Of a stretch of DNA of 64,000 nt, positions 12,001-21,000 are shown piece after piece. How positions within the stretch are numbered: the stretch's first letter is position 1; each line of letters starts with the position of its first letter. The stretch spans positions 1 through 64,000 of the forward strand of contig JAZJZK010000002.1 in assembly GCA_040389905.1 (NCBI GenBank), given 5' to 3'. The DNA comes from Gemmatimonadota bacterium (GTDB taxonomy: Bacteria; Gemmatimonadota; Gemmatimonadetes; Gemmatimonadales; Gemmatimonadaceae). The position numbers were made by a program.

Positions 12001-15000
12001 CGTGATGGCCTGATAGAGGTCGGTGGCATCTGTTCCGCGCATTTCAGCGATGGTGAGGACATCGGAGTTCCGCCCGACCGGTTCACCCTTGCCAGCCATC
12101 GTGACCGGCGCGCACGCCGGCACACCGATCAACACTGCGACCATCATCTGGCGCCGCCACATTGAGACACCCTCCGTATTCCTCAGCGGCAGTCGCCCTG
12201 GGGAATGGTGTAGAGTTTCGCCGGCGTGCACTCGCAGCGCCCGCAAGTGTCCCTAACGAATTTTGCGTGCCAAGCGTGACTCCAGTACTCGACGGATGGT
12301 CACATTGGATTTCTGGGTGATCAGGATCACAGGAACTGGACAGGCTCGCGGTTGATGAAAAGGCGAGACTCGGGCCACGACATTGTCGAAAGAATGCATT
12401 CATCCTTCCACTACATTCCTCATCGTGCAGCCACGCGAGATGGGTAGCCGAACCTCGTATGCCGTCGTTGGAAATGGCCGGATGGGGCGCGCCATGGTTG
12501 CGGCGATGCGACCGCATCTGTCCGTCGAGGGCCCACTGGAGCGCGGCTCCGCCGCCGACTCGGCGGACGTCGTCCTCCTGTGCGTGCCGGACAGAGAGAT
12601 TGCCGCAGCGTGCGCGGCGATTGCGCCAAGTCCTCAGCGTTGCGTGGGTCACATGAGCGCCTCCGCGGAGCTGTCGCTGCTCGAGCCCCATGTCCATCGC
12701 TTTTCGTTGCATCCACTCCTCAGCATCATCGGGCCGGGCGCTCCCTTCAGTGGCGCGACCTGCGTGATCGATGCAAGTGACGAGCAGACGCTCGCGACGG
12801 TGGAGCAGCTCGCATCACTGCTCGGCATGCAACCGCGCCACGTCGCGGACGATCGTCGTGCGCTCTACCACGCGGCGGCGTCCACGGCGTCCAACTACAT
12901 CACGACCGTCCTGGGAATGACCGAGATCCTGGGAGCCGGCGTCGGTCTCGAACGCGCGGCCTTTGCGCAGCTCGTGCGCAGCGCCGTGGAGAACTGGTCG
13001 GCACGGGGTGCTCGCGATTCGCTCACCGGCCCAATCGCGCGAGGCGACGCGGAGACCGTTGCGCGGCAGCGAGCGGCGGTCATCGCGACCGCACCGGAAC
13101 TCACGGCACTCTGGGACGCGCTTGCGCACGCAACCCGGGAGCTCGCGACGAGCGAGCGAGCGACGTGATCGTCGCTCGAAGCGTGCGCGAGCTCCGCGAG
13201 GTAGTGGCCTCCGCGCGTTCGCGCGATGAGCGCATCGGTCTCGTCCCAACCATGGGCGCATTTCACGATGGTCACCTCGCGCTGATGCGCCGAGCCCGCG
13301 AGGATTGCGGATTCGTCGTCGTTTCGCTGTTCGTGAATCCGATGCAGTTCAACGAGGCCGCGGACCTGGCGCGGTACCCTCGCGACGATGTGCGCGACAT
13401 GGCGCTTGCGACGGGAGCAGGTGTCGGCGTCCTTTTCATGCCGCCCGTCGACGAGGTGTATCCGCCGCACTTCGCCACGAGCGTCGAGGTAGCCGAGCTT
13501 GCTGCGCCGCTCGAGGGCGTGGTGCGCGGTCCGCAGCACTTTCGTGGCGTCGCCACGGTCGTGACGAAGTTGCTGAACATGGCGCAGCCCGATGTCGCGT
13601 TCTTCGGCCAGAAGGATGCGCAGCAGGCGTTGATCATCCGGCGCCTTGTGCGCGATCTCGACGTGCCGGTGCGCGTGGAAGTGTGCCCAACCATTCGCGA
13701 AGCGGATGGTCTTGCGATGTCGAGTCGCAATGTGCTGCTCGACGCCGACGCGCGACGACGCGCGCCAGCACTCTCAGCGGCGCTATTTGCAGTGGAGGCA
13801 GCGGTCACGAGTGGAGTGCGCGATGCGGCGCGGGCGCTCGACGCAGGTCAACGGATTCTCAGTGAGGCTGTCATCATTCCAGAATACTTCGCGGCCGTTT
13901 CTACGGACGCTCTCGCACCGGTCGATGCATTCGATGGTGAGACGCTGGTCGCCATTGCGGCGCGCTTCGGGAGCGTGCGCCTCATCGACAACGTGATCAT
14001 CAATGCCTGAATCGAGGCTGCGAGCCATACAGGAGCTGTACGCGCGGGACACGCCGATCGTGATGCTGACCGCGTATGACTACCCATCGGCGCGCATTGC
14101 CGTTGCCGGCGGAGTCGACATCATCCTCGTCGGCGATTCGGCGGCGATGACAGTGCTTGGCTACACCTCGACGCGTGAGATTTCGATCGACGCGCTGCTC
14201 GTTCTCACGAAGGCTGTGCGGCGCGCGACGGATACGGTGCCGATCATCGGCGACTTGCCGTACGGGTCATACGAGGCAAGCGACGAATTGGCCGTTCGTT
14301 CGGCGCGCCGTTTCGTCGACGAGGCTGGTGTGGACGCAGTGAAACTCGAGGGGGCTGGCGAGATGGTCTCGCGGGTTCGCGCGATCATTGGAGCGGGGAT
14401 TCCGGTGTTTGGTCACGTGGGGCTCTTGCCGCAATCCGTTCGCACGCGAGAGGGCTATCGCGCACGCGGCCGAGATCCTGAGCAGGCCCTGGGCATCGTC
14501 GCAGATGCGGACGCACTCGCGGCACTCGGGTGCTCGGGACTGATTGTCGAAGCGGTACCCGCGGCCGTGACGGCGATCATCACGGCGCGAATCGGCATCC
14601 CGGTCATTGGGATTGGCGCGGGGGTAGAGGCAGGGGGGCAGGTGCTCGTGTACCACGACCTGCTTGGATTCAGCGAGGGGCGGATGCCGCGATTCGTTCG
14701 CCAGTATGCCTCTGCGCGTGAGGAGTTGTCGGCTGCGGTGCGCGCGTGGACGTCGGATGTGCGGGCGCGGACGTACCCGGCGGTGGAGCACACGTACCCA
14801 ATCACGGATGAGGCGATGGCGGTCGTACGCGAACAGTTGGGTATTTCGAACGAGTGAGTCGCACCGTCAATCAGCTTTGTCAGGTGCTCGGTGATCAGCC
14901 GCAGCTTACAGAGCAACAGGGGGTGTGGCGCTCAAGTGCATCGCACTCGTTACGCCACACCCCCTGAAAGGCCGTAAGCTGCGGCTGGCCTTATCCGTTC

Positions 15001-18000: not shown

Positions 18001-21000
18001 TTGGGCAGGCAGGAATTGTCCGCGGGGTCCGGAAGGATACCAGGCAGCGGATTCACCTCGACGACGTTTGCTCGGCCATTGGCATCGAGTCGCACGTCAA
18101 CGCGCGACCAATCGCGGCAACCGAGCCCGTCGTATGCGCGCAGCACGACGTCTTCGATCTCGACGCGGAGTTGCTCGCTGACGTCTGCGGGGCAGTCGAA
18201 CATGTCGAGCGGCTGTTCGGGACGGTCCCAGATCCACTTGGCTTCATAGCCGTAGATCGGGAGAGCGCCGTCGGGCAGGGAGCCGAAGTTGATGCCCACC
18301 AGGGGAAGAACCTGCGCGGCGGCGCCGTTGCCGAGCACACCACAGGTGAATTCCGCTCCGGGGAGAAATGTCTCGACGATGACCGGCTGGTCGTAGCGTT
18401 CGAGGAGACCGAGGACGACCGGTTCGATCCGTTCCGCGGCGGCGATGAAGTTTCGTTCCGTAATTCCCTTGGACGAGCCCTCGTGCACGGGCTTGGCGAA
18501 CAACGGCAAGGCCGCGGCGGCGGCGGCGACGAGGGCCGAGAGCTCCGCGGGAGAGCGCACGAGCCACCAGTCAGCCGTCGGGACACCCCGAGCGCGCAGC
18601 ACTTCCTTCGTGCGCGCCTTGTCGAGGCAGAGCGCCAGGGTAAAGGGATCGCTGCCGGAGTAGGGAATTCCGTAGAACTCACAGATCGCCGGGACGTGGG
18701 CTTCTCGATTCGGTCCGCGGAGACCCTCGGCGATATTGAAGACGATGTCCGGGCGTTCTTCGCGAAGCCGCAACGGGAAGTCGTCCGTCGCCTCGAGATG
18801 AATGACGTCTCCGAGCGTGGCGAGGGCGTCGGCGACGGCGTTGATCGTCGCGGGGGAGTCCCACTCGGCGAATTCGTCGTCCGCGACATCTGTGGGCGCG
18901 ACGAGGGTGGCGACGCCCGCGCCGGTACTGGGCGGCTCGTCGTCGGCGCGCGCCAGCTCGGCCGCGTGTGGCGCGGCGATGGGTTCAGGCTTCTGATTGT
19001 ACGCGAAACCGATGCGCGTCATCCAATCCCGGAACTGGAGTACAGCACTACGTCGCGGCGCCACTCAACGGCGATTCGCCTTAGCTCAGGCGTCCATCTC
19101 CACGAACACGCGTGCGGGCAAAACACACGCCACGTGTAACGACGCCGAAGATACGCATTCAGGATTTTTCGCGCAATGAAAAAAATGCGCTCGAGCGATC
19201 AAACTTTGTGGTAACCGATTCTCGCGGCTTCGCGGCGGTCGGCGGCGTCGTAAATCTCGAAGTCGGAGAAGAAGGCGGGCGCCTCGACGAGCAGGATACG
19301 CAACACCGCGATAGCCAGGCGACGAATTTCCAATTCGGCGCCTTCGCTGGAGCGAAGCTCGAGCATCGTGCGCCACGCGCGGGCATTTCCCGTGACGACG
19401 ATCTTCGTCTCGGTGGAATTCGGCAGCACGCCGCGAGCAGCTTCACGCGCCATTTTCCGCCGATGCACCCGGTCCGCGACCCAGCCGTAGCGCTCCATCA
19501 GCTGGGCGACGAGCGCGACGTACGCGCTCTGCGCGCTGTCGATCTGCGCACGCCACGCCCCTTCGAGCGCTTCATCCCCCGCGATGGCGGGGGGAACGAC
19601 GAAACACGCGTCGCTCTCGTCGACGTACCGCTGTGAGAGTTGCGAGTACGCAAACCCGGCGCGATGGCGCACGAGCTCGTGGGTAAGCGAGCGGCTGACT
19701 CCCTCGAGCAGCAACGAATAGTTCGCGTGCTCGAGCACACTACCGTGGCCCTGCTTCTTGATGTTCTCGAGGTAGTCGCGCGTATTCCGGTTTGCGGGAT
19801 TGTGCTGGCTCATGTAGCAGAGCCGGCCCGCGAATTCCGCGAGCCGCTCGCCGTCAGTGCTGTCGCCCTGCCAGTGTACCGGCATATGCTCGGGCGTGGC
19901 GAAGCTCGGCTTTGCGAGCACTGTCACTCTTGGCTCGTAGAACAGACGCTGGGCGGCGGGTGCGGTAGCGGACATGTGTGACCAGTTCCTGCGAAGGGAC
20001 GATAGATCCCGACAGTCACTCGCTTCGCTCGCGACTGCGGGATGACAGGGGCAAAGTTAATACGTCGGTTTTCTCCACGCTTTCTTCCACCTCGGCCAAC
20101 ATTTCCAGCCGCGGGCGAGCGTAGGCGCGATCACGCTCGACGACTCGGAGAACGTCCCGAGCACTCGACGGGAGCGCGGCGAGGGCGGGATCGTACTTGA
20201 CTCGCTCGACGGGACGCGCGCCGCGCGCGGCCAGCTTGGCCCCGGGATTGAGAATGCCCTGCGGATCGAACGCGCGCTTCACCGCCGCGAATCGCTCCAG
20301 CGTTTCCGGTGACCACATCTCGCTCATCAACGGCGCCCGGAGTCGCCCGTCGCCGTGTTCACCGGAGAGCGTTCCGCCAAGTCGCGCCGTCAATGCGCTG
20401 ACCTCGGCGAGGAGTGCATCGACGCGAGCGCGCCAATCGGGCAGCCGGACATCCACCAGTGGATTCACGTGCATGTGAGCATCGCCGGCGTGGCCGAAGA
20501 TGACGCCGCGGATGTCCTGTGATTTCAGTGCGGCGCGCACGCCGGTCACGTACTCGGCAAGCCGATCTGGCGGGACACAGCCGTCCTCGATGAATTGCAT
20601 GGACTTGAGCGCGGGGTCGAGGCGGCTTAGAACCGGGCTCGCGGCGTGTCGCAGCTCCCACATCGCATGCTCGGTTGCCGCATCGAGGGCGACGGACACG
20701 TGCGTCGCACCGTCGGCGCGGAATTTCCCCTCGAGCGCGAGTACGCGAGCGGCGCATTCCTCTGCAGAGTCGCCCTCAAACTCGATGAGAAGGACCGACT
20801 CGGCGCCCTCGGGCACCGGCACCGACGCTCCGCCCTTGCGGGCGACGTCCAGGAAAGTGCGGTCGAGGAGTTCGCATGCACTGGCTCCCGCCTCGCGGGC
20901 GGAAATGGACGCAACGACAGCGTCGTCGAGCGAATCGAACGCGCCGAGCAAGCTGGCCGACGCAGGACGCACGGGGGCGAGGCGCAACTCGACACCGACG

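Follow-up and report, generated by a model that had tools for sequence, protein, structure and literature searches.

A conserved four-gene operon of a Gemmatimonadota bacterium joins a probable lysine 2,3-aminomutase of the KamA family to a small GNAT acetyltransferase and two Ddl-fold ATP-grasp ligases, A and B (Table 1). The reading we consider probable is that the ligases build an N-acetylated β-lysyl peptide or amide, a small product of a cytoplasmic pathway. The first-pass annotation of the window (the whole 64,000-nt stretch analysed, at the start of contig JAZJZK010000002.1) had proposed a β-lysine-containing peptide or amide rather than acetyl-β-lysine alone. What stands of this proposal is that the operon is more than an AblA-AblB pathway, because its GNAT falls outside the AblB family and the catalytic residues of the two ligases are preserved from phylum to phylum; we infer the small-peptide product and the use of β-lysine as a ligase substrate.

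Table 1. Features of the operon and its flanks, in window coordinates.
Feature	Position	Strand	Description or basis
Ligase A	17898..19022	-	Ddl-fold ATP-grasp amide ligase, 374 aa, P0004
Ligase B	16840..17901	-	Ddl-fold ATP-grasp amide ligase, 353 aa, P0003
Small GNAT acetyltransferase	16184..16840	-	218 aa, P0002
KamA-family radical-SAM/PLP aminomutase	14991..16187	-	398 aa, P0001
Pair of inverted ~45-nt REP-like repeats within the GNAT gene	16565..16712	.	BLAST hits
Strong hairpin between converging kamA and panB ends	14917..14966	.	z -6.9 vs shuffles
thyX, upstream neighbour	19199..19975	-	Synteny

On the minus strand, the order is thyX, a 176-nt gap, ligase A, ligase B, GNAT, and KamA. The four operon genes are codirectional and overlap at each junction: ATGA at 17901-17898 (A/B), TGATG at 16842-16838 (B/GNAT), and ATGA at 16187-16184 (GNAT/KamA). 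These gene ends bear out both the thyX-first order and the span 14991-19022 given earlier, which runs exactly from the KamA stop through the ligase A ATG. The ligases had also been called divergent, which holds for their sequences (31% identical) but not for their transcription. The hairpin beyond kamA is probably the transcript end of the operon; it has no U-run, and the terminator scan made no call there. Neither an Rfam match nor a sigma-70 promoter was found between 14700 and 20200. ThyX and an FAD oxidase were considered as pathway members and rejected, their synteny being limited to Gemmatimonadales; thyX is not a recurring neighbour at distant loci.

The joint occurrence of these genes, pointed out in the first-pass annotation, is not due to chance. 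Ligase B follows A in 75 of 80 Gemmatimonadota loci, the five misses having at most 517 nt downstream, and KamA follows in all 65 loci with at least 2167 nt downstream. Counted by genome, ligase B is present in 58 of 121 members of the phylum, with KamA no more than 2.5 kb away in 51 of the 58. The operon recurs in other bacterial phyla and in archaea: among 81 distant loci, 38 hold A and B together, 30 of these with KamA and 25 with the GNAT, usually in the order KamA-A-B-GNAT (K-A-B-G). Two distant A-B loci (L163 and L175) have more than 3 kb upstream and no KamA. Close homologs of ligase A in archaea comprise a Nitrososphaerales record and loci marked as archaeal by FEN1 and peptidase genes. 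The plasmid collection gave matches of only 31-34%, and the viral collection a single locus without the partner genes. In the neighbourhoods surveyed, the K-A-B-G unit has no recurring companion among transporters, peptidases, or regulators. Gene fusions tie the enzymes together further: 150 distant representatives include A-B fusions in 17 cases, four of them assigned by tree, and KamA with A in 4, and B is fused to the GNAT in 3 of the 38 distant loci and also in Atlas clusters. Five candidate 'B-A' fusions were rejected, each being a twin-A protein whose N-terminal domain has decayed; true two-ligase fusions run A-B. The fusions suggest that A and B may bind physically, and the two probably act together, paired as the subunits of a Ddl dimer are.

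KamA aminomutase: by its sequence, lysine 2,3-aminomutase is the most probable identity of the enzyme. It matches PDB 2a5h with an E of 1.5e-103, and C115/C119/C122, R124, D282, D319, and K326 align with C125/C129/C132, R134, D293, D330, and K337 of that structure. The CxxxCxxC Fe-S motif (C115, C119, C122) and the PLP lysine (K326) are thus present, as are R124, D282, and D319. We take their 2a5h counterparts to be the lysine-binding residues, positions at which Glu and Arg aminomutases presumably differ; they are conserved in 41-42 of 42 operon KamAs. On the tree, these 42 proteins are interspersed among true AblA sequences. The earlier designation as a true lysine 2,3-aminomutase is supported by the match and the intact site, but not by the family cut-off: the protein scores 414 bits on TIGR03820, below the 525.4 required, and the match ends at profile position 363 of 417, although this model is still the best equivalog. 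No other KamA-family gene was found in the genome.

Ligases A and B: both enzymes have the Ddl fold and the ATP-grasp catalytic residues. The set is intact in ligase A (K135, K177, E224, K262, R307, D309, E322, N324, G328) and in ligase B (K104, K140, E186, K220, R265, D267, E280, N282), and across phyla it does not vary among 73 sequences of A or 73 of B, except that E270 is Asp in two of the B sequences. The His63 position is Glu in all 73 A and in 70 of the 73 B sequences, the remaining three B having Asp. In ligase A, the predicted donor site comprises E53 and E99, the latter in place of Ddl His63, and the predicted acceptor site comprises S337/C338 and W263, aligned to Ddl S281/L282 and Y216; a low-confidence insert covers approximately residues 16-46. 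This acceptor pocket varies by subtype, being W/C here and mostly E/D at distant loci, and therefore more than one product may be made. Ligase B carries His63 to E67, G276 to D286, S281/L282 to A291/G292, Y210 to V215, and Y216 to W221, and according to the alignment it has lost the acceptor-carboxylate site. The substrate-site roles of Ddl S281, L282, Y210, and Y216 are presumed and were transferred to A and B through alignments rather than liganded structures. The ligase B clade also includes Peptidase_Mx-associated ligases. In a sister twin-A system, a DmpA/BapA β-aminopeptidase adjoins 12 of 19 loci, which fits a β-aminoacyl donor for this ligase clade.

That neither ligase is the peptidoglycan Ddl, as first proposed, is supported by their scores against the curated Ddl cut-offs of 243-246 bits: ligase A reaches 171 and 149 and ligase B 147 and 122, whereas a true Ddl of a relative scores 338. 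Of the D-Ala subsites (His63, Tyr216, Ser281/Leu282), His63 is replaced by Glu and Tyr216 by Trp in both ligases, and Ser281/Leu282 by A291/G292 in B. The accompanying statement that the cell-wall enzyme lies elsewhere applies to relatives, with a canonical Ddl in 59 of 61 phylum genomes, but no true Ddl was found in the host genome, which is 84.6% complete. A third Ddl-like gene, on contig C58, was considered as the missing enzyme and rejected, since it scores 119 bits and adjoins a Peptidase_Mx gene.

GNAT and deacetylase: the operon GNAT bears the motif CFGPTPxTxxTYDLYWxAV, and most of its relatives have 162-207 residues. Here, the REP-like repeat pair, each repeat of which gives some 130-150 BLAST hits genome-wide, sits in frame in a variable loop and adds ~50 residues while the reading frame stays open. 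A relative's copy matches PDB 2r7h, a member of the same GNAT family, with an E of 1.4e-32. The name of that entry, 'putative D-alanine N-acetyltransferase of GNAT family', appears to come from a neighbouring Ddl-like gene, and our literature search found no paper on its activity. AblB (TIGR03827, about 270 aa) has no match in P0002 or elsewhere in the genome, with controls including B. subtilis and M. acetivorans positive. The GNAT lies away from the locus in 15 of 65 cases, and four of five such genomes tested retain an ortholog of 42-43% elsewhere; at archaeal-type loci, a GNAT of another family stands beside the same operon genes. In 6 of the 38 loci, B and the GNAT are separated by a deacetylase of the acetylpolyamine amidohydrolase (APAH) clade; four of these loci are 82% alike and hence not independent. 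The deacetylase matches this clade at E 3e-72, and the closest lysine deacetylases of bacteria at 1e-35. An apparent 630-aa GNAT fusion at L166 was rejected, its reading frame being extended across a deacetylase gene.

The pathway that we propose would begin with the conversion of L-lysine to β-lysine by KamA, the step most strongly indicated. Ligase A would then phosphorylate the carboxylate of β-lysine with ATP, holding its amines through E53 and the new E99, and would join it to an amino-acid acceptor at the retained S337 site. The GNAT may acetylate an alkyl amine left free, in the simplest case the ε-amine. In the weakest step, ligase B, in which the acceptor-carboxylate site is lost and which often occurs fused to the GNAT, would form a second amide using an amine acceptor, for which the lysine or β-lysine side chain, a polyamine, or ammonia are candidates. 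The last three steps are given in one possible order. The acetyl group would be reversible where the acetylpolyamine-type deacetylase lies in the operon, and the product would likely serve as a compatible solute or as a nitrogen or lysine store. Against this pathway speak the genomes and distant loci in which A and B lack an operon KamA, the want of a recurring transporter, peptidase, or regulator, and the variable acceptor pocket of A.

Less likely, though the strongest of the competing explanations, is attachment of β-lysine to a macromolecule, either a protein side chain or terminus in RimK/LysX-like, EpmA-independent fashion or a growing β-lysine polymer, with the GNAT and deacetylase writing and erasing an acetyl mark. 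An acetylase-deacetylase pairing suits such a reversible mark, but the deacetylase belongs to a small-molecule clade. Ligase B lacks an acceptor-carboxylate site and groups with the Peptidase_Mx-associated ligases, and no exporter or importer recurs at the loci; the pairing of synthetase and peptidase in the sister system also resembles that of cyanophycin. Both folds nevertheless lie far nearer to the Ddl enzymes, which act on small molecules (Z 28-35), than to RimK/LysX (Z 22-24), and no gene for a target turns up repeatedly among the neighbours. A somewhat more doubtful formulation has an A-B heterodimer making a β-lysyl isopeptide chain in many bacterial phyla and archaea, switched by the GNAT and deacetylase, as a cyanophycin-like cationic storage polymer or an EpmA-independent protein tag. 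We regard as improbable that acetyl-β-lysine is the sole β-lysine product, with neither ligase using it or β-lysine. Five genomes of three genera do hold A, B, and GNAT without the operon KamA, their only KamA-type gene being a distant one (11-18 kb off where on the same contig), KamA accompanies only 2 of the 19 twin-A relatives, and an APAH-type deacetylase would suit acetyl-β-lysine. Against this, KamA-ligase A fusions exist, and the true AblA-AblB loci of the phylum are separate from the operon and score above the cut-off. The tighter link is moreover that of KamA to A-B, because at the 15 of 65 loci that the GNAT has left, KamA remains beside the ligases.

Two further explanations are highly improbable. 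A Van-like system, supplying peptidoglycan with a different terminal dipeptide or cross-bridge, would agree with the Ddl fold and with the canonical Ddl not found in this genome, but not with the Ddl elsewhere in the phylum, the close archaeal homologs of ligase A, the loss of His63 from both ligases, or the lack of recurring mur or van genes nearby. It is just as hard to credit that KamA feeds EF-P modification or lysine fermentation and that the ligases are incidental, even with a single KamA-family gene found. EF-P β-lysylation was rejected: the best match to the EpmA model is a 496-aa lysyl-tRNA synthetase (LysS), leaving no EpmA, and the only EF-P of this incomplete genome has a TPGNLR loop without the target lysine. 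KamD was matched in none of 31 genomes, in a search that matched no control genome either.

The favoured reading, a small acetylated β-lysyl peptide or amide, would extend a short list: to our knowledge, the fates of β-lysine are few, namely EF-P modification, lysine fermentation, the osmolyte acetyl-β-lysine, and some antibiotics. The operon occurs in roughly half of the Gemmatimonadota genomes sampled, as well as in archaea and other phyla of bacteria, and this distribution points to another common fate of β-lysine and a further metabolite. The operon also supplies candidate ligases for β-peptide bonds, its four small soluble enzymes make the pathway directly accessible to testing, and it marks a large number of proteins named 'D-alanine-D-alanine ligase' in databases as misannotated. 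Our literature searches found no description of it; ATP-grasp gene neighbourhoods were reportedly reviewed by Iyer et al. in 2009 (Mol Biosyst), and that review may mention it.

Among known systems, the AblA-AblB pathway makes N-ε-acetyl-β-lysine in methanogens and Pelobacter, according to PMC3543383. The operon likewise couples a lysine 2,3-aminomutase to a GNAT that likely acetylates a β-lysine amine, but this GNAT is of a ~165-aa family unrelated to AblB at the TIGR03827 cut-off, KamA falls below the AblA cut-off, and two ATP-grasp ligases are added. As for EpmB, KamA scores 221 versus 369 bits on TIGR03821, below the cut-off. With Ddl and Van enzymes, the ligases share the fold, the ATP/Mg residues, Arg255, and, in ligase A, Glu15; they differ in scoring below all cut-offs, in the change of His63 to Glu, in the altered acceptor pocket, and in forming a separate sister clade that occurs in archaea. 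Synthesis of N-acetylglutaminylglutamine amide (NAGGN) uses a GNAT and an ATP-grasp enzyme to make an N-acetylated dipeptide solute. The operon has the same logic, including GNAT-ligase fusions, and its GNAT matches TIGR03103 (NAGGN) weakly (E 9e-4), but its ATP-grasp enzymes are of another family, it lacks an asparagine-synthase-like amidotransferase, and its building block comes from an aminomutase. In pyrrolysine synthesis, the radical-SAM lysine mutase PylB feeds the amide-forming ATP-grasp ligase PylC, a distant structural match (Z 17.9). The order of mutase then ligase is shared, but PylB is a PLP-independent carbon-skeleton mutase, and the operon has two ligases and a GNAT without PylD, PylS, or the tRNA.

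The window's genome (5.08 Mb, 84.6% complete), whose nearest named relatives are the Gemmatimonadaceae, encodes two Ddl-fold ATP-grasp ligases (A and B), a GNAT and KamA in genes that, by our sequence reading, overlap by 4 nt (A/B), 1 nt (B/GNAT) and 4 nt (GNAT/KamA). A strong hairpin (z -6.9) lies 3' of kamA, ahead of the converging panB. The first-pass annotation called the ligases divergent, which describes their sequences (A versus B, 31%) but not their orientation, as all are codirectional. The panC-panB cluster adjoins in only ~10-12 of 82 related loci.

Features of the window and of compared loci (L numbers denote extracted loci; G000 is the window's genome)
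Feature	Location	Strand	Remark
thyX	window 19975-19199	minus	upstream of ligase A
Ligase A	window 19022-17898	minus	
Ligase B	window 17901-16840	minus	
GNAT	window 16840-16184	minus	
KamA	window 16187-14991	minus	
Inverted ~45-nt REP-like repeat pair	window 16565-16712		in frame, variable loop of GNAT gene; ~130-150 matches each in genome
panC-panB cluster and upstream gene without NCBIfam family	window 12383-14857		converging on kamA
Third Ddl-like ligase (B clade)	L024 4808-6822 (G000 contig C58)		directly behind Peptidase_Mx zinc-peptidase gene; pair recurs in relatives, e.g. L032
Single EF-P	L038 1492-2058 (G000 contig C14)		
Distant KamA-type aminomutase	L211 4742-6139; L209 16400-17809		ligase operon of same genomes lacks KamA
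True AblA, then sodium/solute symporter fused to AblB	L217 2099-5766		Gemmatimonadota; TIGR03827 over cut-off
Lone ligase A homolog	L206 6998-8011		viral contig (IMG/VR, 29% GC), amid methyltransferase and glycosyltransferase genes
Twin Ddl-like ligase fusion, then DmpA/BapA-type S58	L126, L132, L134, L135, L137, L138, L140, L141, L148		usually without KamA

Ligase B follows ligase A in 75 of the 80 best Gemmatimonadota loci; KamA lies downstream in all 65 long enough to show it, with the GNAT between ligases and KamA in 50. Five genomes among the 15 GNAT-less loci were checked: four carry a 42-43% GNAT ortholog adjoining lpdA, and the fifth is an assembly of only 1.7 Mb. At the relocated sites (L119-L122) the GNAT lies behind lpdA, and a gene named integrase-like by sequence likeness adjoins in three of four. 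Of 121 genomes drawn evenly from the phylum, 58 gave a ligase B, and 51 of those have KamA no more than 2.5 kb away; the other seven comprise one with the genes on different contigs, one whose operon lies at the edge of a contig, and five, from three genera, that hold A-B-GNAT or part of it and a sole, distant KamA-type gene that keeps the lysine-site aspartates. At L211 and L209 this gene adjoins an aminotransferase, an aldehyde dehydrogenase and a probable CoA-transferase pair (labelled from sequence likeness; the family search gave no match), possibly a non-orthologous replacement or a catabolic cluster. The operon is patchy, being absent from relatives in the same family whose genomes are complete on a single contig. 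Phylum counts are descriptive because kin are not independent; three genomes flagged as unpublished (G012, G031, G082) each add one genome to them, and the conclusions are the same without these.

KamA aligns with 2a5h at E 1.5e-103 and, numbered along that alignment, keeps the Fe-S cysteines and R134, D293, D330 and K337, which we presume to act as in lysine aminomutase. Its description as a true lysine 2,3-aminomutase is most probably right, but the AblA cut-off is missed (414 versus 525); the glutamate, arginine and EpmB models score 381, 318 and 221, and operon KamAs intermingle with true AblA on a tree of weak deep support. Both ligases have confidently predicted folds (pLDDT 89 and 91) that match Ddl structures at Z 28-35 and other ATP-grasp enzymes at Z <=24, and on a tree their clades are sisters outside true Ddl. 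In DdlB, Glu15 and Arg255 contact the ligand, according to a figure legend of PMC5717164; PMC6899670 names a His, an Arg and an Asn as key catalytic residues of Ddl and the dimer as a recurrent feature. That His is probably His63. Ligases A and B may bind each other. Mapped onto E. coli DdlB (73 sequences each), both keep K97, K144, E187, K215, R255, D257, E270 and N272, and therefore both look active; in both, His63 is replaced by Glu. Ligase A keeps E15, G276 and S281, with a W/C pocket in the window and mostly E/D in distant loci, and in ligase B E15 is variable, G276 is D or C, S281 is A and L282 is G. Given the roles we take these residues to have in Ddl, the donor of ligase A would be cationic or a beta-amino compound and its acceptor an amino acid; ligase B would use an amine acceptor. 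The GNAT is not AblB and belongs to the family of PDB 2r7h; in relatives, its variable loop holds shorter repeat-like inserts.

Distant ligase A queries gave 81 loci, of which 38 have A and B, mostly in the order KamA-A-B-GNAT (KamA in 30, GNAT in 25); six of the eight without KamA have <=680 nt upstream and two have >3 kb. Relatives in the Atlas clusters come from Thermodesulfobacteriota, Bacteroidota, Planctomycetota, Myxococcota, Omnitrophota, Acidobacteriota and Pseudomonadota, with a Nitrososphaerales record in one cluster, and in several distant loci there are marker genes of archaea and the GNAT is of another family. The 150 best representatives (50% clustering) include 17 A-B, four KamA-A and 30 twin-A fusions; B is fused to the GNAT in 3 of the 38 A-B loci. 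Among additional genes only one recurs, a deacetylase that lies between B and GNAT in six of the 38 (four 82% alike) and has acetylpolyamine amidohydrolases as its closest solved relatives. No recurring transporter or regulator appeared in a scan of 84 of 211 flanking genes and a clustering of all frames.

Together, KamA would convert lysine to beta-lysine, the ligases would form two ATP-dependent amide bonds, and one N-acetylation would be reversible. The small product, an acetylated beta-lysyl peptide or amide, would serve as solute or store. We infer all substrates, the step order and the product, and consider this pathway probable and the best reading, in line with the earlier proposal of a beta-lysine-containing peptide or amide. 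Modification of a protein or polymer by the operon is unlikely, and it is still less likely that plain acetyl-beta-lysine is made and the ligases are unrelated to it; true AblA-AblB loci of the phylum stand apart from the ligase operon.

A wall precursor is very improbable, as 59 of 61 phylum genomes have a canonical Ddl over cut-off at another place; the earlier statement that neither ligase is the cell-wall Ddl, which lies elsewhere in relatives, agrees with this, although none was found in the window's genome, one of the two misses. Beta-lysine from KamA for EF-P or fermentation deserves equally little credence: the 84.6%-complete genome yielded no EpmA, and its EF-P loop reads TPGNLR, without a lysine at the modification site. 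KamD had no match in this genome, in a search whose control was uninformative.

The twin-A fusions belong to a sister system. Peptidase S58, whose solved relatives include DmpA-type aminopeptidases and the beta-peptidyl aminopeptidase BapA, adjoins them in 12 of 19 loci and A-B pairs in none of 38; a KamA-type gene is present in 2 of the 19, and the N-terminal ligase domain is decayed in some representatives. This pairing is a candidate unit of beta-dipeptide synthesis and turnover. Twin-A ligases share the His63 to Glu change, and therefore the S58 link indirectly supports a beta-aminoacyl donor throughout the ligase clade. No description of the operon was found in titles and abstract openings, and subscription journals, supplements and the Iyer 2009 review could hold a mention; mentions in passages of PMC8842026 are unrelated to it, and those of PMC3543383 describe ablA-ablB only. 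Apparently undescribed so far, the operon is real, widespread and built from known enzyme classes.
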